From: an uncultured bacterium
Lineage (GTDB): Bacteria > Babelota > Babeliae > Babelales > Vermiphilaceae
Length of the DNA: 64,000 nt
Assembly (NCBI GenBank): GCA_963702025.1
Contig: OY969699.1
Location: forward strand, 64,001-128,000
Direction of reading: 5' to 3'
This document shows, one piece after another, positions 6,111 to 48,571 of this stretch (position 1 is the stretch's first letter; each line of letters begins with the position of its first letter). Position numbers and translations under genes: made by a program. A model generated the notes under the pieces. That model was not told where the DNA came from and ran no database searches. It saw only the letters and a list, made by a program, of their open reading frames with translations.

Positions 6111-7580
6111 ATGGAAAAAGCAGTCATCTATGCCCGAGTATCATCCAAAGACCAAGAAGCAGAAGGTTTCTCGATCCCCGCTCAAATAAAAGCACTTCAA
6201 GAATATGCGGCAAAGAATCATCTTATTGTCATCCAAGAGTTTACCGATGTGGAGACTGCAAAAAAGGCAGGCCGCACACAATTTAATAAGATGCTAACAT
6301 TCATTAATGAAAATAAGCATATCAAACACATTTTAGTTGAAAAAACTGATCGCTTACTCAGAAATATACCCGATTATGCCCTTATTGATCGCTTAATACT
6401 CTATTCTGATATTAAAATTCACTTGATTAAAGAAGGCAATATCCTCAGTAAAGATTCCAAATCAAACGATAAGTTTATATTTGGCATAAAAGCACTGATG
6501 GCTAAAAACTTTGTGGATAATCTTTCTGAAGAGGTTAGAAAAGGGATGGCAGAAAAAACTGCCCAGGGTATTTATCCATCAACTGCGCCCTACGGATATG
6601 TAAATGTCCGTGAAAATGGTAAAAGCATAATCAAAGTTGATCCTCTGGCGGCTGCCTATGTGAAACAAATGTTTGAACACTATGCAACCGGCGGTTATTC
6701 ACTAAAAACCTTAAGAAAAAAAATGCTTGATGATGGGATGGTTTATCGCAATGGCAAAAATTTTTATAAAAGCAAGGTAGAAGGTATTCTGAAAAATGAA
6801 TTCTACACCGGCATTTTTATCTATCGCGGCAAGCGATATGATAATGCAACCCATGAGCCAATCATCAGCAAAGAATTATTTCAACGTGTACAGGATGTGA
6901 TGACCAATCCCTATAAAAGTAAATCTAGAAAAGGGCTTTTTCCTTATACCAATCTCATTGCCTGCGGCATGTGTGGTTGCGCATTAACTGCCGAAATTAA
7001 AAAAGAAAAGTACATTTACTATCATTGTTCTGGCTACAAGGGCAACTGCAAACAAGGCACTATACGTCAAGAAGCTATCGAAGCCCGATTTGAATCGATG
7101 CTTGAAGACATGTATATCCCCGATGATATTCAAGAAAGTATTCTGCAGGGGCTACGTAGCAGTTTTAAGGATAAGATTGAGTATCGCGCCAGTCTTGTGG
7201 ATCAACTGCAAAAACAGATCAAGCTTTTACAAAGTAGGATAGATAAGACTTACATCGATAAGATTGACGGAAAAATTTCTGAAGAATACTGGGCCACTCA
7301 CACCCAAGATTGGGCGAATGAAAAAGATATCTTAATGATAAAGCTTGTGGCAGTAGAAAAAGCAGATTCTCATTATTTGGAAAACGCGAATATTATTTTA
7401 GAACTCGCCAAAAAGGCCTCCCAGCTGTTTAAACAGCAAAATGCGGAGCAAAAACGTAGATTGATCAATTTGTTAGTACAGAACTGCTCTTATAAAGATA
7501 AGAACCTTGATGTAGAGCTGAAACCAGTGTTTGGCGAGATCATGAAATCATCAAAAACTAGAAATTGGTGTGCCCGATAG
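6111..7580 (+). CDS. Large serine recombinase (integrase)
   Basis: YARVSS catalytic Ser, DRLLR, APYGY, HEPIIS, CGMCG...YYHC zinc ribbon, C-terminal coiled coil. Confidence 0.95.
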   Translation: MEKAVIYARVSSKDQEAEGFSIPAQIKALQEYAAKNHLIVIQEFTDVETAKKAGRTQFNKMLTFINENKHIKHILVEKTDRLLRNIPDYALIDRLILYSDIKIHLIKEGNILSKDSKSNDKFIFGIKALMAKNFVDNLSEEVRKGMAEKTAQGIYPSTAPYGYVNVRENGKSIIKVDPLAAAYVKQMFEHYATGGYSLKTLRKKMLDDGMVYRNGKNFYKSKVEGILKNEFYTGIFIYRGKRYDNATHEPIISKELFQRVQDVMTNPYKSKSRKGLFPYTNLIACGMCGCALTAEIKKEKYIYYHCSGYKGNCKQGTIRQEAIEARFESMLEDMYIPDDIQESILQGLRSSFKDKIEYRASLVDQLQKQIKLLQSRIDKTYIDKIDGKISEEYWATHTQDWANEKDILMIKLVAVEKADSHYLENANIILELAKKASQLFKQQNAEQKRRLINLLVQNCSYKDKNLDVELKPVFGEIMKSSKTRNWCAR

Positions 7581-7642
7581 GATTCGAACCTATGACCTAC
7601 GGATTAGAAATCCGTTGCTCTATCCAGCTGAGCTACGGGCAC
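7566..7642 (-). tRNA. tRNA-Arg(UCU)
   Basis: Reverse complement GTGCCCG...ACGGA-TT-TCT-AA-TCCGT...GGTTCGAATCC...CGGGCAC-ACCA, 77 nt, CCA encoded. Confidence 0.97.
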
Positions 7643-9433: not shown

Positions 9434-9461
9434 TTGACAAGGCTATAAAATAGGGTATTCT
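9434..9461 (+). promoter_or_regulatory. Sigma70-type promoter for the RBR ligase pair
   Basis: TTGACA-N16-TATTCT; GGAGGT RBS at 9500-9505. Confidence 0.55.
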
Positions 9462-9510
9462 AAGAGTTAGAATAGTAGTATTAAGTAGTATATATGTATG
9501 GAGGTTTATT

Positions 9511-11217
9511 ATGTTATATACGTCAAAATATGCACCTTTTATGGTGTTTTTACTCGTTTCAGGCCCTTTAATGGGTATGGAACTTCCCTATCGCTTAAAT
9601 AATGCAAATTATGAAGCAAAAAATGCGATTTTCCCCATTGTTGAAGCAGGGAGCCCTGCCGATCTAGATCGGGTACTGCAAAGATTCCAAAATATCTCAA
9701 TAAATGAAATTGCCAATGACCAAGAAATGGTACCTTTATTGGTAGCTGCAGTTAATGGCAATTTGCTCGTTGTAGAATACCTTATTAACGTGCATGGCGC
9801 TGATACGGGGATTACACATCATGGCCAAAATGCACTGCATAAGGCAGCGGCAAATGGGCATCTTGATGTGGTTCAATACCTTGTTGAACAATGCCACTTT
9901 GATGTTGAATTTCCTGATGAATCAGGCAATATTCCCCTTGATTTAGCTAAAAATAATGGCCATGATCAAGTTGCTAATTATCTTGCTATTTGGGCTCAAC
10001 CAGTAGCTCCGGCGGCACTTGTAGCAAAAGCTGCTCCAAAAACAGCACCAGCAGTTGCTCAAAGACCTGCGGTTAAACAACCTATTGCACCGGTGACAAA
10101 GGCACCTGCAGTTCCTCAAAGGCCCGCAGAACCAAAAAATAATGCGCCAGCAAATCAAAAAGAAGCGAACTGCCAAATTTGCTTTGATTCTAAACAATTG
10201 CAAAAACTGAACTGTGGCCACGAATTCTGCGGTGAATGTTTAAATGGTATGCTTGATACTGCAATCCGCGATAAATCAAGCAATGCGCTCAAATGCCCAA
10301 CACCAAACTGTGCAAAAGCATTTGAACCCAAAGATATAAATACCATTAATAAAGCCAAAGCGGTTCAAATACTCGATATTCAAGCCCGCGAAGCAATGGC
10401 AAAAGATAACAATATTAAACATTGCCCAACCCCCGATTGCCCGTATTCATTTGTTAATGATGCCAATAGAGCAGAAACAATTCGCTGCGAACAATGCAGA
10501 AAAGAATATTGTTCAAATTGTTTAACTCAACACGCGCAAAAAGTTTCTTGCGAGCAAGCGAAGAAAGATTCTGCCGCAGAAAGAGCAACTCAGCAATGGA
10601 AAGATGCCAATACAAAACAATGTCCTCAATGCAAAAAGAATATTCAAAAAGATGGCGGTTGTATGCATATGACCTGTGCACAATGTCATTATGAATTTTG
10701 TTGGAACTGCATGAAAAGATGGAATGCATATGAGCATCCAAATTCTTACAGCTGCTATCAAGCACCACAACAACCAGTTAACAATAATGCAATCGTAAAC
10801 GAGCCATATGTACCCGTTCACACTGAAAATGATTTTGAAGATGGCGATATTGCTTTTGGCGTACCAGCTCAAGCCTTTGCAGTGAATAATAGAAGAGATG
10901 ATCATAGGCAACCAAATATGAATCGCATGACACAACGTCAGATCCAAAACTTTGGTCCAGTTGATTATGCAATGCGACAAAGAACTTTTAACTTTGGCGC
11001 AGTGCCACGTGATTTTAATCGTTTTAGGGCCCTTTTACTCAGAAACCAAATTACACTTATTAGAAGTGAATTTACCCGCGAAGTAAATAACGCAAGAGCA
11101 GATTACTTGGTACGTGAGATCACCACATGGTCCATTGGGGTTAATTATCATCCAAGCCAAGAAAATAGAGTTCAAGAATTGGTATTCAATGCATATCTCG
11201 AAGCAATGAATAACTAA
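9511..11217 (+). CDS. Signal peptide-ankyrin-RBR (RING1-IBR-RING2) E3 ubiquitin ligase 1
   Basis: About 3 ANK repeats (NALHKAAANGH), Pro/Ala linker, RING1 CQIC..CGHEFCGEC..CPTPNC, IBR CPTPDC..CEQC..CSNC..H..C, RING2 TKQCPQCKKNIQKDGGCMHMTCAQCHYEFCWNC. Confidence 0.92.
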   Translation: MLYTSKYAPFMVFLLVSGPLMGMELPYRLNNANYEAKNAIFPIVEAGSPADLDRVLQRFQNISINEIANDQEMVPLLVAAVNGNLLVVEYLINVHGADTGITHHGQNALHKAAANGHLDVVQYLVEQCHFDVEFPDESGNIPLDLAKNNGHDQVANYLAIWAQPVAPAALVAKAAPKTAPAVAQRPAVKQPIAPVTKAPAVPQRPAEPKNNAPANQKEANCQICFDSKQLQKLNCGHEFCGECLNGMLDTAIRDKSSNALKCPTPNCAKAFEPKDINTINKAKAVQILDIQAREAMAKDNNIKHCPTPDCPYSFVNDANRAETIRCEQCRKEYCSNCLTQHAQKVSCEQAKKDSAAERATQQWKDANTKQCPQCKKNIQKDGGCMHMTCAQCHYEFCWNCMKRWNAYEHPNSYSCYQAPQQPVNNNAIVNEPYVPVHTENDFEDGDIAFGVPAQAFAVNNRRDDHRQPNMNRMTQRQIQNFGPVDYAMRQRTFNFGAVPRDFNRFRALLLRNQITLIRSEFTREVNNARADYLVREITTWSIGVNYHPSQENRVQELVFNAYLEAMNN

Positions 11218-11236
11218 AATATTTGGAGATACATCC

Positions 11237-12745
11237 ATGTCAGTATTTTTGATAAAAAAGGTTTTCCCTTTAGTGATACTCATATCCGTACCCGTAATAA
11301 GTATGGAAAAAGCGGAAAAAATTATTGCCATACAGAAGGCTGCAACTAATCCTCTGCATGAAGCTGCGGCCCAGGGTAATTTGGATAAAATTCGCTTTTT
11401 AATTGAAAAATCCGGCATGGATGTAAATGCTACCGATGCAGATAATAATATTGCTTTAGATTTCGCCAAAAAAAATCATCATAATGCAGTTGCCAATTAC
11501 CTTGTGGCAACAATGAATAAAGTTGAAAAAATAAAAAAAACTGTCGATGAGAATAAAGAATTCATGGAACTCGCAGATCTGTTTGCAAAAGAGCTAAAAG
11601 TACTCGATCCTTTACGCATGTGCAATATTTGTTTGGATGAAAAAAGTAGTCCTGAATTTAGCACGCTCGGTTGCAATCATGAATTTTGTACTACATGTTT
11701 GGATAAATTTATCAAGACTGCATGCAAGGATCACTCTACCGCTGCGTTGCGCTGCCCCATTGTTGCATGTAAAAAAACAATTGAAAATAAAGATTTTCCA
11801 AAAATTACCGACGCACAAAGTATTGCAAAACTTGAAGAGATACAACTGCAAGAATGGATTATAAAACAACCGGGAGCAAAACAGTGCCCAACTCCGGAAT
11901 GTAAATATGCATTTATTGCTGACGGCAGTAATCAAAAACAAAACATTCAGTGCCCACGATGCAAAGAACATTATTGCTCTCATTGTTTAATAAATCATCC
12001 AAAACAGATCTCATGCGAAGATGCTAATCCTGAAAGAGCATCTGATACTTGGAAAAATGCGCATACTAAACCCTGTCCACAATGCAAAGCGCCGATAGAA
12101 AAAAACGAGGGTTGTTTGCATATGACATGTCAGGCCTGTCATCATGAATTTTGCTGGGAATGTTTGGTACCCTATAAAGAGATGAAGCATGGCTTCTATA
12201 AATGTGAAAAAGTTGCATCTCAAAATTCAACAACTTCAGCAGAGCCCGATTCGCCCGAAGCACTACTAGCTCGCGGAAGGGCGTTTTTAGATGAAGCCGA
12301 CCGAAGACTCGCTCGCGAAGCGGCGACTCTTGATGAAGGCGACCAAATGCTCGCTCGCGCAGAAGCGGTTATTGCAAGATTGAGAAACCAAACATCTGCA
12401 AACAATGTAAACAGACCAGATCAGGACATCGATATTGATGATCATAATGCAAGCATAATAAGCATTATGAATAGAGCGGATCAATTAATTGCTAGACATG
12501 AACATCATATTTTTGCTGAGAATCCAACAAATACTATCCGGATCACCGCCCATCCCATCCGATATCTTAAATACGGGTTTATTTTTCGTTTTATGGATTT
12601 ATCTCAAGATCAACGTAATGCGTGGGCCACCGCAATTGATCAAAGAAATATTGCTCATTTGAATGCTTGGCAGCGCGCAGATATCTGGGAAGAAGAATTA
12701 CAAATATTAGAAAGTGCTCAAACCCAAATTACCGGCAACAAATAA
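11237..12745 (+). CDS. Signal peptide-ankyrin-RBR E3 ubiquitin ligase 2
   Basis: ANK NPLHEAAAQGN; RING1 CNIC..CNHEFCTTC..CPIVAC; IBR CPTPEC..CPRC..CSHC..H..C; RING2 TKPCPQCKAPIEKNEGCLHMTCQACHHEFCWEC. Confidence 0.92.
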   Translation: MSVFLIKKVFPLVILISVPVISMEKAEKIIAIQKAATNPLHEAAAQGNLDKIRFLIEKSGMDVNATDADNNIALDFAKKNHHNAVANYLVATMNKVEKIKKTVDENKEFMELADLFAKELKVLDPLRMCNICLDEKSSPEFSTLGCNHEFCTTCLDKFIKTACKDHSTAALRCPIVACKKTIENKDFPKITDAQSIAKLEEIQLQEWIIKQPGAKQCPTPECKYAFIADGSNQKQNIQCPRCKEHYCSHCLINHPKQISCEDANPERASDTWKNAHTKPCPQCKAPIEKNEGCLHMTCQACHHEFCWECLVPYKEMKHGFYKCEKVASQNSTTSAEPDSPEALLARGRAFLDEADRRLAREAATLDEGDQMLARAEAVIARLRNQTSANNVNRPDQDIDIDDHNASIISIMNRADQLIARHEHHIFAENPTNTIRITAHPIRYLKYGFIFRFMDLSQDQRNAWATAIDQRNIAHLNAWQRADIWEEELQILESAQTQITGNK

Positions 12746-13028
12746 CTCTCTTGATCGCGTTATGGCACGCAATGAACATGAACTTTTTGCAGCAAATCCT
12801 AATGATCCTGTGCATTCATTTCCTTTTCGCCACCTTGTCAATGCCGATTTTGTTGGCCGCTTTACGCAGCTTTCTACAGCGCAACGTAATAATTGGAAGA
12901 TTGCAGTTGGCCAAAGAACAAATGGCATTTTAGACATTCTGGAACGCGCAGACATCTGGGAAGAGGAATTGTCTCGCATAGAAATACAGCAAATAAGGGA
13001 CGACTCAATAAAACTGTATTTGCTTTAG
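12714..13028 (+). CDS. Out-of-frame second copy of the RBR2 C-terminal module (frameshifted extension, or a separate gene from ATG 12762)
   Basis: ARNEHELFAANP...RFTQLS..QRNNW..RADIWEEEL matches ARHEHHIFAENP...RFMDLS..QRNAW..RADIWEEEL in RBR2. Confidence 0.6.
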   Translation: MLKPKLPATNNSLDRVMARNEHELFAANPNDPVHSFPFRHLVNADFVGRFTQLSTAQRNNWKIAVGQRTNGILDILERADIWEEELSRIEIQQIRDDSIKLYLL

Positions 13029-13050: not shown

Positions 13051-13077
13051 GGTCTGCAAAATAGCAGGACTTTTTTA
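13051..13077. terminator. Intrinsic terminator
   Basis: gtctgc-aaaata-gcaggac hairpin followed by T6. Confidence 0.55.
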
Positions 13078-13215: not shown

Positions 13216-14232
13216 ATGGTAAAAATAGATAAATTTGCAGTATTTATTCTGGTTTTGCTCACTTTTAATCTTACAAAGCCAGTGGAAATTACTAAACAAA
13301 CGGACACAAGGTCTGCTGTTGAATTACTTCCTGTTGAACTTCAAACGCAAATTCTACACTATGTAGTCAAGGCCCCCGGAGCAACACAGGAGGAAAAATT
13401 AAAAAATGCTACTGCAAATATCCGCAATTTAATCAAAACCAATAGAGCATCTGAAGACCTTTTAAATGATGAGAACATCACCACATATCTTATTAACGAA
13501 TTAGCACGATATACACACTCGAATCAGCCTTTAGCTGCCATAGCTTTAGGGACCATTGGCGCACGAAACTGGTTTACCGACTACGCTAAAAACGAAGCCA
13601 ATTTATCAAAAATCGCAGAAATCTTACGGAATATAGCCTCGAAGTGTCAATTACATAAGGGAGATTTGGACATTGTCGAATTCATTTGTACGTATGCACC
13701 AAATGCAGTTAATATTATTGCAAACTCTGAGAAAAAAACTGCCTTGATATTTGCCGCAGAGCGTGGTCATACTGCCATTGTAAAAAAATTATTACAAGCT
13801 TCTACTCTTTCAGTTAATTTTCAAAGCAACAATGGAAATACTGCATTGATCTCCGCAGCAAAAGCAGGCCATACTGCTATCGTCCAACAATTATTGGCAG
13901 TTAAAGGTATTAATGTTAACACAAGAAACAAACAGCAGCAAAATGCATTATTCTTTGCAGCAACAGCTAATAAAACTGAAATCATGGAGAACTTATTAGC
14001 AGTCCCAGGCGTTAATGTTAATATACAAAATGAATTATCGGGAAATACTCTCTTAATGGTGACGGCGCGCAATGGCAATGTTCAAATTGTAAAAAAATTA
14101 TTAAAAAATCCCAGCGTCAAAGTAAATTTGAAAAATATAATTGGGGAGACTGCATTAGGAAGTGCAGAACAATCGAATGCTGCGAACAAAGAAACTATTA
14201 TTGAGCTTTTAAAGAAAAATGGCGCCAAATAA
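13216..14232 (+). CDS. Exported F-box-like/ankyrin repeat protein
   Basis: Signal peptide; LLPVELQTQILHYV; about 5 ANK repeats (TALIFAAERGH, TALISAAKAGH). Confidence 0.85.
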   Translation: MVKIDKFAVFILVLLTFNLTKPVEITKQTDTRSAVELLPVELQTQILHYVVKAPGATQEEKLKNATANIRNLIKTNRASEDLLNDENITTYLINELARYTHSNQPLAAIALGTIGARNWFTDYAKNEANLSKIAEILRNIASKCQLHKGDLDIVEFICTYAPNAVNIIANSEKKTALIFAAERGHTAIVKKLLQASTLSVNFQSNNGNTALISAAKAGHTAIVQQLLAVKGINVNTRNKQQQNALFFAATANKTEIMENLLAVPGVNVNIQNELSGNTLLMVTARNGNVQIVKKLLKNPSVKVNLKNIIGETALGSAEQSNAANKETIIELLKKNGAK

Positions 14233-15650: not shown

Positions 15651-17147
15651 CTACGGCGCAAAGACTAAGCTAAACTCTTTGGCGATCACTATCAAATCTT
15701 CTTTAATCTCATCGGTGATGTCTGCTGTCTGCTCAATCACATCGTAGACTGGCCGATAGAGCGATTTGGTGAAACTGACAAATTGTGTAGCAAATGAATG
15801 CACCTGCTTTACGGCAATCGCATCTAAGAAATTCTCTTTTAATAAAAATAACATTAATGCCTGATCCACAAAAGAATACGTGGTATATTGCGGCTGCTTG
15901 AGCAATTCAATAATTCGCGCGCCACGGGCCAATTTGCGCTGCGAGACTTCATCAAGTTCTGTGCCAAATTGCGCAAAATCGAGAAGCTCATGATACTGCG
16001 CTAATTCTAGCCGCAATGCTTTGGTCATTTTTTTAATTGCATTCGTTTGCGCTGCACCGCCAACACGCGATACTGATAATTCAACGTTCACTGCCGGGCG
16101 CACCCCTTCATTGAATAAAGTGGTGTCCAAAAAAATTTGACCATCGGTAATTGAAATGAGATTAGTTGGAATGTAGGCAGTAATATCATCACTTTGAATT
16201 TGCACAATCGGTAATGCAGTAATGGAGCCACCGACTGCCAATTTTCCTGCGCGTTCTAACAAACGGGAATGCAAATAGAATACATCGCCCGGGTACGCTT
16301 CGCGACCTGGTGCACGGCGCAAAAGCAACGACATTTCTCGGTAGGCAATTGCATGATTGGAAAGATCGTCGTAAATAATTAATACATCTTTTTGCTGGTC
16401 CCTAAAAAATTCGGCAATCGTGCAGGCCGCATAGGGGGCAAGATAAGCGTTTAATACCGTTTCACTTGAATCGGCACTCACCACTACCGTGTAATCAAGC
16501 GCACCCTTTTCTTCTAATTCTTGCACAATGCGAGCCAAATTTGCCTGCCGTTGCGCGATAGAAACATAGATGCAAATAACATTTTTATCTTTTTGATGCA
16601 CAATAGTATCTAAAACAATAGACGTTTTACCGGCATTTCTGTTACCGATAATAAGTTCTCGCTGCCCTTTACCAATCGGTTCGAGCGCATCAATCACCAG
16701 TATGCCTGTTTCTAATGATTCATTAACCGGGCTCCGCTGCGTAATACCGGCAATAGGCTCCTCAACGGCACGATATTCTGTTGCATTAATTTTTCCCAGC
16801 GCATCTATTGGCTTGCCCAATGCATTCACTACGCGGCCAAGCAACTGATTGCTCACCGGCACCCGAAACACATTATTGGTACGTTTTGCCACTTCCAATT
16901 CCGTAACGGGAATACTGCTATCGAGCAAAAATATTGCTACAGAATCTTCATCCAAATTAAAAATAATGCCGCTATTGCCCGATTCAAATTGTATAAGTTC
17001 GCCATATTTTGCATTATTTAAGCCATGAACAAAACAGATGTTATCGCCCACTTTTATAACCAGGCCGATTTCTTCGAGCTTCTGATCTGAAAGCCCTTGT
17101 AATGCTTTTTCAAACAGCGAAACCAGATCAGTAGTCTTAATATCCAT
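15651..17147 (-). CDS. atpA: F1 ATP synthase subunit alpha
   Basis: IGKGQRELIIG, PGREAYPGDVFYLHSRLLERA, SVSRVGG. Confidence 0.98.
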   Translation of the reverse strand: MDIKTTDLVSLFEKALQGLSDQKLEEIGLVIKVGDNICFVHGLNNAKYGELIQFESGNSGIIFNLDEDSVAIFLLDSSIPVTELEVAKRTNNVFRVPVSNQLLGRVVNALGKPIDALGKINATEYRAVEEPIAGITQRSPVNESLETGILVIDALEPIGKGQRELIIGNRNAGKTSIVLDTIVHQKDKNVICIYVSIAQRQANLARIVQELEEKGALDYTVVVSADSSETVLNAYLAPYAACTIAEFFRDQQKDVLIIYDDLSNHAIAYREMSLLLRRAPGREAYPGDVFYLHSRLLERAGKLAVGGSITALPIVQIQSDDITAYIPTNLISITDGQIFLDTTLFNEGVRPAVNVELSVSRVGGAAQTNAIKKMTKALRLELAQYHELLDFAQFGTELDEVSQRKLARGARIIELLKQPQYTTYSFVDQALMLFLLKENFLDAIAVKQVHSFATQFVSFTKSLYRPVYDVIEQTADITDEIKEDLIVIAKEFSLVFAP

Positions 17148-17151
17148 ATTT

Positions 17152-17697
17152 TTAATCCTTGTGATCGTTGATCAAAGCCTGAATCCTGGCAAGCTGTTGC
17201 TTGACCGAATATTCCCAAAGATGCTCACCACTTTGCATCCGAATACCGGCTATTAAATTTTTATCCAGTTTCATCTGGCACACGATAGTATGATGAGTTT
17301 TATCATTAAGGAAATCAGTAATCGTTTTTTGTTGTAAAGAGCCCAACTCGGGACAACTTGAAATGGTAAATAGTTCAATACCCTGACGACTTTGATAAAT
17401 TTCTACGATCTGCTTTAATACATCAGCTATTAAATAACTTCTTTTTTGTTTGACCAGCAGCTGTATCAATTGTTTAAATTCAGACGGCAACGCAAAACGG
17501 GAAATTAAACAATCTTCCAGTGCATTGACTTTTAATCGTGGATCTAAAAGCGGCACCTTAAGCAGAGAGAATAATTCTGCATGGTTAGAAAAATAGGAAA
17601 TTGAAGCATTAATTTTTTCTATATATTCGGGCAGCAGAGAAAATAAATTCAAAAAGGCTTGCGCGTATCTTTTTGCAAGAAAGAATCGTGAATCCAT
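17152..17697 (-). CDS. atpH: F1 ATP synthase subunit delta
   Basis: AKRYAQA N-terminus, LIAGIR C-terminal motif, position upstream of atpA. Confidence 0.9.
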   Translation of the reverse strand: MDSRFFLAKRYAQAFLNLFSLLPEYIEKINASISYFSNHAELFSLLKVPLLDPRLKVNALEDCLISRFALPSEFKQLIQLLVKQKRSYLIADVLKQIVEIYQSRQGIELFTISSCPELGSLQQKTITDFLNDKTHHTIVCQMKLDKNLIAGIRMQSGEHLWEYSVKQQLARIQALINDHKD

Positions 17698-17699
17698 AA

Positions 17700-18182
17700 T
17701 TATTTTCTTTCCAAGCCGGTAATGAGTTTATCAAGATAGGTTTGGGCCCACATTTTGTTTGTTTCTTGCGCAAAAAAATTGTTTACCTCGTCAAGAGCAT
17801 CGGTAATCTTTTGCCGTGTAGCCTGCCGCTTTGCAATTTCTTTATTTTTACTAACCACCCGTGCAACTGCATGATCCATATATCGGTGATATTCACCGTG
17901 CTTTTTAACATTCTCCAAGCGCACTTTTAATGTCCATTCATCGATTTTTTCTTTTAAGAGTGATGCATGATTCTCTTGTTTTTGTAATTTCTTTTCAAGG
18001 TTGGCTGATTTCCCCCGCAAAAAAAGCTCCTGCTCTTCTAGTCCTTTGATGAGCATCTCTTTTTGGGTAATTTTTTCGTCGATTGAATTCTTAAAATATT
18101 TCTGAAATATAAAAGCGCCTATTCCTGCCAGAACCCCGAAATTTAAGAGTCGAAAAAAAATGGTTAATGAACTACTTACCAT
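17700..18182 (-). CDS. atpF: Fo subunit b
   Basis: N-terminal TM (RLLNFGVL) plus coiled coil; operon position; likely start at 18182. Confidence 0.75.
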   Translation of the reverse strand: MVSSSLTIFFRLLNFGVLAGIGAFIFQKYFKNSIDEKITQKEMLIKGLEEQELFLRGKSANLEKKLQKQENHASLLKEKIDEWTLKVRLENVKKHGEYHRYMDHAVARVVSKNKEIAKRQATRQKITDALDEVNNFFAQETNKMWAQTYLDKLITGLERK

Positions 18183-18543
18183 GACCCACCTTTTGTAAAA
18201 GAGCGTCAGCGATAAAGGGAGCAATATCCTCGATCCTACTTTTTTCGATTGTTGGAATAACAATTGATGGGATAACTGGCCCGCCGATCAAGGGTTCTTC
18301 TTTAAAAGAAGGACGATGGTGCAAAAAGTAATCCCGCGCCCGGCGCCAGTGCTCTTGCAAATTTTGCTCATTGCGTTCAACCTGCATTTGCCCCGACTGC
18401 ACAGATCGCACTAATGATTCTTGCAACGTATCTTGCGTGGCAATTTCGTGATATGCCTGTTTAAAAAAGAAATATTTTATAGCAACGTATGCAATGAAAA
18501 AATGAAATGCCTGCACAATCAACGTGCTATTAATAATTGACAT
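18172..18543 (-). CDS. Fo subunit b'-like
   Basis: INSTLIVQAFHF TM typical of b/b'; lies between atpE and atpF. Confidence 0.7.
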   Translation of the reverse strand: MSIINSTLIVQAFHFFIAYVAIKYFFFKQAYHEIATQDTLQESLVRSVQSGQMQVERNEQNLQEHWRRARDYFLHHRPSFKEEPLIGGPVIPSIVIPTIEKSRIEDIAPFIADALLQKVGHGK

Positions 18544-47191: not shown

Positions 47192-48571
47192 TTAAGCGGT
47201 TATTAATTCGATTTCATTTTCTTTTGTTTCTTGCGGTGGTGTCGCTGCACTTACCGGCTCATTAGCGTTAGCATTGCTTTGGTCGTTAATAATGTCATGG
47301 ACCACATCTTGTGTTACCACACTAACTATTTCAATCACAACAGGATCAATGGTAGCCGGCTTTTCATTATGTGCCTTTTGTTCCTGCTCTTCAACGCATG
47401 CAACTTCTTTATTTTCATCGCAGGGAATTTGCATCTTTTGGCAGGAATCAACTTCTTCAGCCATCATGTGTGGCACGTCAACCATCGGTTGCTCTTGTGC
47501 ATCAGTCGTATTGCAAGCGTCACACTCATAAGTGTACCGATCAAGCAATGCAATAATGGAATCACGATTTCCAACTTCTTGGGCTACCTGTACCAAAGTT
47601 TTACCGGAAGACTCTCTTTGAGCAACATCCGCGCCGGCGTCAAGTAACATCTGTACAATCTTTTCATCGCCTTTGACAACTGCCAAAAGTAATGGGGAAA
47701 AGCCACAGTCTACGCCTTTATTAACGTCCGCTCCTGCGTCGATAAGAAATGCAACCGTGTCCAGTGCATTTTTTTCTGCGGCGATAGCCATATGCAAAGG
47801 AGTAGCTCGATCAAGATTGCTACAATTTACATCAGCGCCATTCGTCAATAATAGGTTTATCAGAGGACCGTTGCAACAATAGGCTGCATAATGCAAAGCA
47901 GTATCGCCAAATTGGCTTGCGATGTTAATATTTACCCCCTCTTGGGCAAATCGCGTCAGTGTCTCAAAATCATTGTTGTTGATTGCAATTATGATCTGCT
48001 CATCTTGGGTCAATTCTCTGCAAACGTCGGCTTGTTCCATATCTTGATCAACGGCCACAACGCTTGAATAGGGCGCTTGCTCAACGGCATCTTTGCTTAA
48101 TTCTCTGCACACATCTGGGTCCATACCTTGATCAGCGGCCATAACGATTGAGCATGGCGCTTGCTCAACGGCATCTTGTTTCTCGCAAGGCATTTGTGCA
48201 TTTTTGCTTTGTTCAGTATCGCAGGAATCAACGGACGGCATCAAAGGCTGACTTACAACGCACGGCATTTTGCACTGATCATTATTTTCTTTTTTACTGC
48301 GGTAATAATCTTGGTGCTCTAAATCACAGAGCAATTGATCTTCATCAACGCAGGGTGAAAGAGAAAGAGAATCTTGTTTTGGCTCTTCAGCTTTTTTGAA
48401 CAAACTATAAACAATATAACCTGCAGCAACTGCGCCAATGGCTGCCGCTATTTTTTTTGTATTAGACCAGTTATTAATGTCATTAACTAAGGTATTAAAA
48501 ACAGAAATTCCCGGTTGAGTAACTCCGATCCAAAAAAGGCTCACAATACAAATAACGTGTAATACTTTCAT
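47192..48571 (-). CDS. Ankyrin repeat protein with low-complexity Cys/acidic flanks
   Basis: GDTALHYAA, ATPLHMAI, SPLLLAV; signal peptide plus TM. Confidence 0.85.
   Translation of the reverse strand: MKVLHVICIVSLFWIGVTQPGISVFNTLVNDINNWSNTKKIAAAIGAVAAGYIVYSLFKKAEEPKQDSLSLSPCVDEDQLLCDLEHQDYYRSKKENNDQCKMPCVVSQPLMPSVDSCDTEQSKNAQMPCEKQDAVEQAPCSIVMAADQGMDPDVCRELSKDAVEQAPYSSVVAVDQDMEQADVCRELTQDEQIIIAINNNDFETLTRFAQEGVNINIASQFGDTALHYAAYCCNGPLINLLLTNGADVNCSNLDRATPLHMAIAAEKNALDTVAFLIDAGADVNKGVDCGFSPLLLAVVKGDEKIVQMLLDAGADVAQRESSGKTLVQVAQEVGNRDSIIALLDRYTYECDACNTTDAQEQPMVDVPHMMAEEVDSCQKMQIPCDENKEVACVEEQEQKAHNEKPATIDPVVIEIVSVVTQDVVHDIINDQSNANANEPVSAATPPQETKENEIELITA
48012..48177 (-). repeat. Intragenic tandem duplication (about 28 aa x2)
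   Basis: DAVEQAP.S.V.A.DQ.M...DVCREL occurs twice. Confidence 0.85.

Follow-up and report, generated by a model that had tools for sequence, protein, structure and literature searches.

Organization of the RBR gene pair

A 64,000-nucleotide stretch from an uncultured, likely protist-parasitic member of the Vermiphilaceae (Babelales; phylum Babelota, also called Dependentiae or TM6), comprising positions 64,001 to 128,000 of contig OY969699.1 (assembly GCA_963702025.1) and referred to below as the window, carries two adjacent genes for proteins with a complete RING1-IBR-RING2 (RBR) triad. The genes, designated P0001 (9511-11217; 568 amino acids) and P0002 (11237-12745; 502 amino acids), are uninterrupted open reading frames (ORFs) on the plus strand, separated by 19 nt and preceded by purine-rich ribosome-binding sites on the same strand (GGAGG at 9500-9504 and GGAGA at 11225-11229, respectively). 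A first-pass annotation, made from the sequence alone, had described them as intron-less bacterial genes between tRNA-Arg and atpA, and this description holds. The tRNA-Arg(TCT) gene is located at 7566-7642, with two genes between it and the pair, while atpA, assigned with Pfam, lies on the minus strand at 15651-17147, beyond a partial duplicate and three further genes, with P0001 and P0002 directed toward its 3' end. The sigma70-like promoter proposed at the same time has a recognizable motif (TTGACA-16-TATTCT, plus strand, 9434-9461, 10/12 matches); however, promoter-like sites around the two genes were no commoner than in shuffled sequences (10 vs 13.1 ± 3.6), and this one is only plausible.

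Pfam profiles for zf-C3HC4 (corresponding to RING1), IBR, IBR_1 (corresponding to RING2) and Ank_2 matched both proteins above the cut-off, with E-values for P0001 and P0002 of 4.5e-19 and 1.3e-14 (IBR) and 1.8e-18 and 2.7e-18 (IBR_1), and inspection identified every expected zinc ligand in RING1, IBR and RING2 of both, in agreement with the ankyrins and complete triads originally proposed. P0001 begins with a signal-peptide-like segment (residues 1-22; 9511-9576) with a heuristically predicted mature start at Met23-Glu24, followed by ankyrin repeats (residues 76-159; 9736-9987; Ank_2 E-value 2e-14), a Pro/Ala linker, RING1 (10171-10311; ligands C221, C224, C235, H237, C240, C243, C262 and C267), IBR (10423-10551; C305, C310, C326, C329, C334, C337, H341 and C347), RING2 or Rcat (C371-C415; 10621-10755) and a unique tail, whose C-terminal domain (10960-11214) was otherwise found only in the close homologue P0004. 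P0002 comprises a signal-peptide-like segment (residues 1-22), an ankyrin region (residues 36-91; 11342-11509) 47-51% identical to the ankyrins of P0001, RING1 (C129-C178; 11621-11770), IBR (C217-C260; 11885-12016), RING2/Rcat (C280-C323; 12074-12205), a linker and an ~85-residue helical domain, termed module B (residues 411-497; 12467-12727). All of these features are on the plus strand, and the RBR cores of the two proteins are 41-43% identical.

The RING2 motifs, KDGGCMHMTC..C..EFCWNC in P0001 and KNEGCLHMTC..C..EFCWEC in P0002, had been correctly read and numbered. The catalytic cysteines, C384 (codon 10660-10662) and C293 (12113-12115), align with the cysteine of the ARIH1 motif GGCNHM and are followed by His at +2 (H386 and H295) and Glu at +11 (E395 and E304). 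This spacing resembles that of the Parkin active site, C431/H433/E444, in which Glu is at +13 (PMC3709503). The catalytic match to Ariadne and Parkin noted earlier is borne out. Loop II of RING1 reads C262-x4-C267-Ala in P0001 and C173-x4-C178-Lys in P0002, with no linchpin Arg in either; in HHARI, a C-x4-C loop and the lack of a following Arg are features that keep the conjugate of ubiquitin-conjugating enzyme and ubiquitin (E2~Ub) open (PMC5462532).

As the first-pass annotation had stated, no Ariadne or Ubl domain was present among the Pfam matches of either protein. PF19422 and PF21235, which occur on eukaryotic homologues and which we take to be the Ariadne-domain and UBA-like accessions, gave no match in P0001 or P0002 at E≤0.01, and an NCBIfam scan returned ankyrin cross-matches only. 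Constitutive activity, suggested on these grounds, is not refuted but finds no support. It does not follow from the lack of regulatory domains, because HOIL-1 and RNF216 constructs consisting of little beyond the RBR module still require allosteric di-ubiquitin (PMC9834252).

Structural comparison pointed in the same direction as the domain assignments. A family profile compared with the PDB retrieved ARIH2 (E-value 7e-40) and ARIH1 (1e-37), and then CUL9, HOIL-1, Parkin, HOIP and RNF216. The AlphaFold model of the P0001 core had a predicted local distance difference test score (pLDDT) of 93, and all 42 rows listed by Foldseek for this model were RBR ligases (best match 5udh, E-value 7e-13). 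The relative placement of the domains differs (template modelling score about 0.5). By every test of sequence and modelled structure available, P0001 and P0002 are true RBR-family members.

An RBR family across the Babelota

P0001 and P0002 are the sole RBR genes of their genome, but not of the phylum. With a threshold of E≤1e-8, the family profile matched 47 of 261 Babelota genomes, which belong to 9 of the 21 family-level groups; the weaker matches possibly represent single domains. A family set was assembled from the DNA around IBR_1 matches, with loci or above the cut-off, and contained 78 distinct ORFs from 43 genomes: (i) 50 full triads (30 genomes), (ii) 21 proteins in which RING1 and RING2 occur without an IBR (13 genomes), (iii) six with RING2 only, and (iv) one with IBR and RING2. 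The catalytic Cys was present in 50/50 triads, in which mean column identity was 28%. Among the best 150 matches in a search of 1.84 billion representatives, 146 were new proteins, and 102 of these had a signal-peptide-like start. When these unnamed representatives were pooled with the genome ORFs into a bacterial-type set, the catalytic Cys was found in 205 of 206 distinct RING2s, and 154 of the 203 RING1s that were scored had the C-x4-C loop. Solved RBRs do not use this Cys to bind zinc, and its conservation therefore argues for catalysis. Identity reached 58% or more in four of the 1225 core pairs; the ratio of nonsynonymous to synonymous substitution (dN/dS) was 0.09, 0.22 and 0.24 in three of them and the fourth was saturated. 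Purifying selection on the catalytic residues of the family is supported by these comparisons. Automatic NCBI labels exist for single members, such as 'RBR family RING finger protein' (MFC1842378.1) and 'IBR domain-containing protein' (MDR3647140.1).

The regions flanking the RBR core vary. Ankyrins were detected at E≤1e-6 in 8 of 48 scanned relatives, before the RBR, after it or on both sides, and on this sequence evidence ankyrins and tails are shuffled modules. The parallel with eukaryotic ANKIB1 drawn in the first-pass annotation, compared by architecture alone, is likely to be convergent: ANKIB1 carries its ankyrins N-terminal to the RBR, as do P0001 and P0002, whereas in the Babelota family they are optional and variably placed, and the genome under study has 163 Ank_2 matches (candidates partly scored).

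The C-termini of P0001 and P0002 had been called unrelated, and the two tails do differ, but that of P0002 is a recurring family module. Module B follows RING2 in 13 other entries of the family set (including two that duplicate genome ORFs) and occurs in 4 of 261 genomes, each time at RBR loci. It is modelled as a helical bundle (pLDDT 86) and gave no Pfam family and no Foldseek match at E≤0.001; its best VIA match was among helical bundles (Z 5.7, root-mean-square deviation 3.8, 68 residues aligned). A resemblance to the cysteine domain of ubiquitin E1 (1z7l, E-value 0.049) was rejected, as the match disappeared with a 14-row alignment. A copy of module B, overlooked in the first-pass annotation, is encoded between the pair and atpA by a stand-alone plus-strand ORF (12714-13028; 104 amino acids from a GTG codon) lacking a signal peptide. 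It reproduces the final ~85 residues of P0002 (43.5% identity, E-value 1e-14) and is likely a leftover of tandem duplication. A second module, A, recurs after RING2 in about 20 entries; the P0001 tail did not match it (hhalign probability 0.8%).

The IBR-less members come from loci L010, L018, L024, L025, L029, L031-L034, L046, L047, L050, L052, L059, L065, L069 and L073. In those measured, RING1 and RING2 are separated by a linker of 45-75 residues that contains hardly any Cys or none, compared with a RING1-RING2 interval of 97-123 residues containing 7-10 Cys in triads, and the catalytic Cys was seen in those whose RING2 motif was inspected. At locus L034 (G242:C1:583000-602500), five RBR-type genes lie in an array; one of them has additional RING1 repeats, and another combines RING1 with two RING2-like units. 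In genome G210, a signal peptide and an S-adenosylmethionine-dependent methyltransferase are fused to RING2 only (L049:1362-2417).

Phylogeny and occurrence outside the Babelota

The closest named eukaryotic sequences to the bacterial RBRs were Ariadne-type. A FastTree core tree of 88 rows (the 40 triads left of 50 once near-duplicates had been removed, 40 eukaryotic, 5 viral and 3 other sequences) gave a support of 96 for the bacterial branch. In an IQ-TREE analysis under a mixture model, with 55 rows left after dropping 33 long or redundant ones and a bootstrap that had not fully settled, 24 Babelota rows together with L084 and P0007 formed a clade with support of 95/93, outside a separate clade of Ariadne and giant-virus sequences (99/98). 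The Babelota RBRs are, on the basis of this tree, not members of the Ariadne subfamily. P0001 and P0002 were not recovered as sisters. The phylogeny suggested in the first-pass annotation yields a single bacterial clade, with the viral rows grouping elsewhere, and a giant-virus intermediary receives no support from the trees. Of 18 IBR-less members placed, 13 fell inside the smallest clade holding full Babelota triads, at several places and with no strong support.

A single old acquisition of the RBR from a eukaryote by bacteria is likely, on a tree that is unrooted and contains few non-Ariadne eukaryotic subfamilies. The horizontal transfer proposed for the two genes stands to this extent, but it concerns a phylum-wide clade rather than a local curiosity, and that clade is not nested within Ariadne.

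Nearly all bacterial RBR matches came from lineages that have small genomes or are host-associated. In one Myxococcota order (that of G261), with genomes of 1.6-3.4 Mb, 5 of 38 genomes contained nine matches (L111, L113-L120); all nine have the catalytic Cys, and in seven RING2 is cut after the first zinc site. When eight more of these long-branched rows were added, FastTree gave no branch of at least 95 around L084 and the Babelota rows. Among 72,556 plasmids there was one RBR match, in Endozoicomonas sp. Mp262 (CP092490.1, L101:1933-3333). Its product is signal-peptide-like, keeps the catalytic Cys, has Arg in place of His and falls outside the Babelota clade; it is apparently an independent capture. 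Its neighbours, judged by their ORFs, resemble genes for phage lysis and packaging. No RBR match was found in phage records. It should be noted that a contig scan with a single exact peptide pattern yielded 16 loci and missed most known members, and absence from other phyla cannot be concluded from it.

Predicted export and proposed mode of action

A signal-peptide-like start, judged by a hydropathy and charge heuristic rather than a trained predictor, was found in 69 of the 78 genome ORFs, in contrast to 1 of 148 eukaryotic homologues. Two neighbouring genes for GspD-like secretins are present in the genome (G000:C1 366024-371191). In Babela, the type II system is the only secretion system detected, and F-box, RING and C19 deubiquitinase proteins are encoded (PMC4378268); two gspD copies are also general in TM6 bacteria (PMC4776705), signal peptides are carried by 44% of Chromulinavorax proteins (PMC6561590), and cultured Babelota all infect protists (PMC12172432). 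The host-directed role originally proposed for P0001 and P0002 is likely in light of their N-termini, the two secretins and the type II secretion described for the phylum. Five other genes of the genome encode RING proteins above the Pfam cut-off (G000:C1 55823, 398579, 468385, 622484 and 869107) and are candidate RING E3 (ubiquitin ligase) effectors. No match to E2 or ubiquitin was found in the genome, a weak negative, as the controls gave no match either.

P0001 and P0002 carry an intact RBR of a Babelota-wide family, and we consider that they are probably exported effector E3s that would borrow the ubiquitin-activating enzyme (E1), E2 and ubiquitin of a protist. In the proposed sequence of events, both proteins would be exported by the Sec route with cleavage before Met23 and pass the outer membrane through the type II system, after which the RBR domains would load zinc and fold. 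RING1 would then hold host E2~Ub in the open state, ubiquitin would be transthiolated to C384 or C293, and His-assisted transfer onto a substrate lysine would follow. The ankyrins and interchangeable tails are likely to set location and substrate, and each paralogue would accordingly mark different host proteins.

Several observations weigh against this proposal. The heuristic that identifies the signal peptides also flags 788 of 1470 ORFs of the genome; the signal peptides of the first-pass annotation are here signal-peptide-like N-termini. The Sec route takes some 24 zinc-ligand Cys through the periplasm, with reduction and zinc loading unexplained, and a vacuole membrane, if there is one, would be a further barrier without an explained crossing. 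The active site is incompletely kept: His in 32 and Glu in 24 of the 50 triads, and His in 137 of 206 bacterial-type RING2s vs 109 of 123 in eukaryotes, for which reason the chemistry may vary among bacterial members. A short C-x2-C loop replaces C-x4-C in 45 of the 203 scored RING1s, and the pairs used for dN/dS include neither P0001 nor P0002.

In this genome, P0001 and P0002 included, [A/G/S]-Met occurs at positions 15-31 in 303 of the 788 signal-like ORFs compared with 75 of the 682 others, and Glu follows that Met in 145 of the 303 (background 6%). A mature Met-Glu start would suit eukaryotic N-terminal acetylation and N-end-rule stability. Alternatively, the pattern may come from internal start codons.

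Alternative interpretations

The strongest competing reading, which we nevertheless regard as unlikely, accepts active, exported RBRs but assigns them a different main acceptor: the surface of the bacterium itself or its vacuole, a group other than lysine, or a co-infecting virus or microbe. Replacement of His by Tyr, Ala, Trp or Lys in about a third of the members is compatible with it, as are the hydrophobic tails that end several relatives and the precedent of HOIL-1, which modifies Ser/Thr and sugars (PMC9834252). P0001 and P0002 themselves, however, both have the canonical Cys/His/Glu, both contain ankyrins, a protein-binding fold, and show no evident transmembrane segment after the N-terminus.

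Less probable still is that the proteins are catalytically idle mimics, binding host E2~Ub or ubiquitin as decoys or scaffolds. The reduced architectures could be taken in this sense, given that 6 of 78 members are RING2-only, 21 of 78 have no IBR and 7 of 9 RING2s of the Myxococcota order lack the second zinc site. Yet the near-universal catalytic Cys extends to IBR-less and truncated members, and this weakens the idea, because a decoy would need no non-structural catalytic Cys.

A role within the bacterial cell or periplasm, either in concert with a ubiquitin-like system of bacteria or as zinc or redox proteins, appears very unlikely. Sec signals guarantee periplasmic delivery only, and bacterial ubiquitin-like systems do exist, but the single-contig, 95%-complete genome gave no E2 or ubiquitin match (the weak negative noted above), the patchy, copy-number-variable and domain-shuffled distribution is typical of effectors, and the near-restriction of bacterial matches to small-genome or host-associated lineages also speaks against it.

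An assembly chimera, or eukaryotic or viral contamination, can be set aside as extremely improbable: RBRs are a eukaryotic hallmark, the public reads are too thin to join the locus with atpA, and one outside match (L088) does resemble a contig-edge eukaryotic fragment, but the genome is a single contig of 1,596,033 bases (0.88% contaminated), the genes lack introns and have bacterial ribosome-binding sites, G+C content near the locus is 0.36-0.42 vs 0.39 for the genome, the family forms one bacterial clade present in 47 of 261 phylum genomes, and the position adjoining atpA recurs. Of 69 loci in other genomes, RBR-type genes are directed at the atpA 3' end in G189 and G190 (same genus) and in G209 (another genus), with a tandem RBR pair beside atpA in G190. 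It is this synteny and the phylum-wide occurrence in independent genomes, rather than reads, that exclude the chimerism of which the first-pass annotation had warned. Mapping of four DNA runs from one study (depth 2-4) gave identical short contigs in both RBR genes and atpA; one read-derived contig bridges P0001 and P0002 (11033-11281) and none reaches atpA. As the run set may be the source sample, it was not used as support. The outside match, L088:2-628, is a piece of IBR and RING2 at a contig edge in a Competibacteraceae record; it has a hydrophobic tail, neighbours housekeeping genes of bacterial type, and is eukaryotic-looking and possibly chimeric.

Genomic surroundings

The other genes of the window are ordinary bacterial ones (29 ORFs scanned), including recD2, uvrB, leuS, rpsA, ligD and further ankyrin-repeat genes (13216-14232, 47192-48571 and 51246-52832). 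By G+C content at third codon positions, the RBR pair falls at the 7th and 20th percentiles among 995. A terminator-like hairpin (13053-13068, plus strand) lies at the end of the putative operon; the signal is weak, with 7 such hairpins found vs 4.0 ± 2.3 in shuffled sequences.

Upstream, a large serine recombinase gene ends at tRNA-Arg(TCT) (6111-7642 for the two together), likely at the border of an integrated element lying upstream. In G004, a recombinase 70% identical to this one is located near an RBR fragment. On the other side, ATP synthase genes for atpA, delta and b occupy 15651-18543, where the run stops, with no gamma or beta gene next to it. RBR genes lie downstream of atpA in four genomes, and this side of atpA is a possible effector insertion site.

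Relation to known ligases and significance

Ariadne proteins (ARIH1/HHARI, ARIH2; plant ARI7/ARI8) are the best sequence and structure matches across RING1-IBR-RING2, sharing the zinc ligands, the C-x4-C loop and the catalytic Cys-x-His, but the Babelota proteins have a signal peptide, ankyrins and private tails instead of an acidic N-terminus, UBA-like region and Ariadne domain. Parkin, HOIL-1, HOIP and RNF216 have the RBR fold in common with them, and Parkin a similar Cys/His/Glu spacing; similarity is lower (E-values about 1e-19 to 1e-25), and no Ubl, RING0, LDD or NZF match was found in the Babelota proteins. Giant-virus RBRs (Fadolivirus, Hokovirus, Klosneuvirus and Megavirus in BFVD; L090-L100 from IMG/VR) are likewise encoded by non-eukaryotic genomes and used in protist hosts. 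Unlike the Babelota proteins, they have no signal peptides in the ORFs read and are expressed in the host rather than exported, and 4-5 viral rows fell outside the bacterial clade.

The bacterial E3 effectors described so far (RING/U-box, HECT-like SopA, NEL IpaH/SspH, SidC and F-box types, and the RING, F-box and C19 proteins of Babela) are similar to the Babelota RBRs in their likely role, which is to manipulate host ubiquitin after export. A catalytic Cys is also used by NEL, HECT-like and SidC E3s. Their folds, however, are unrelated to the RBR, and delivery in Babelota is likely Sec/type II instead of type III/IV. A 2026 paper distinguishes at least seven families of bacterial E3s, a single one being similar to eukaryotic RING ligases, and its available portion lists no RBR type (PMC13728172). 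Nor is a bacterial RBR mentioned in the available portions of PMC12591485, PMC8567218, PMC2904391 and bioRxiv 10.1101/2025.07.29.667580. Our literature search, whose scope did not extend to the supplements of the Babela and TM6 papers, subscription reviews or a 2007 RBR review, found no description of bacterial RBR ligases beyond the automatic database labels, and the novelty supposed at the outset is retained. The Babelota RBRs very likely constitute an undescribed class of bacterial effector ligases.

A broader proposal is, in our judgement, evenly poised. It holds that these proteins are the first bacterial RBR effector class, in which one ancient eukaryotic capture would have given rise to a phylum-wide modular arsenal of up to about seven genes per genome, with transfer to or from a small-genome order of Myxococcota. 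Natural ligases of RING1 and RING2 that lack the IBR would belong to this arsenal and would transthiolate in the absence of the allosteric ubiquitin site considered to be unifying for RBRs.

The family represents a natural experiment on RBR catalysis. Its cores, some 200 in number, are divergent, small and free of regulators, and include cases with a substituted His, a short zinc loop, a deleted IBR or half a RING2; they offer a way to ask how many of the 'unifying' RBR features are really needed. Research tools may also come from compact RBR cores whose targeting modules can be exchanged. If the proposal is true, the set of eukaryotic E3 mechanisms among bacterial effectors would be completed, and the first defined virulence enzymes would be in hand for a phylum of protist parasites about whose manipulation of the host next to nothing is known.

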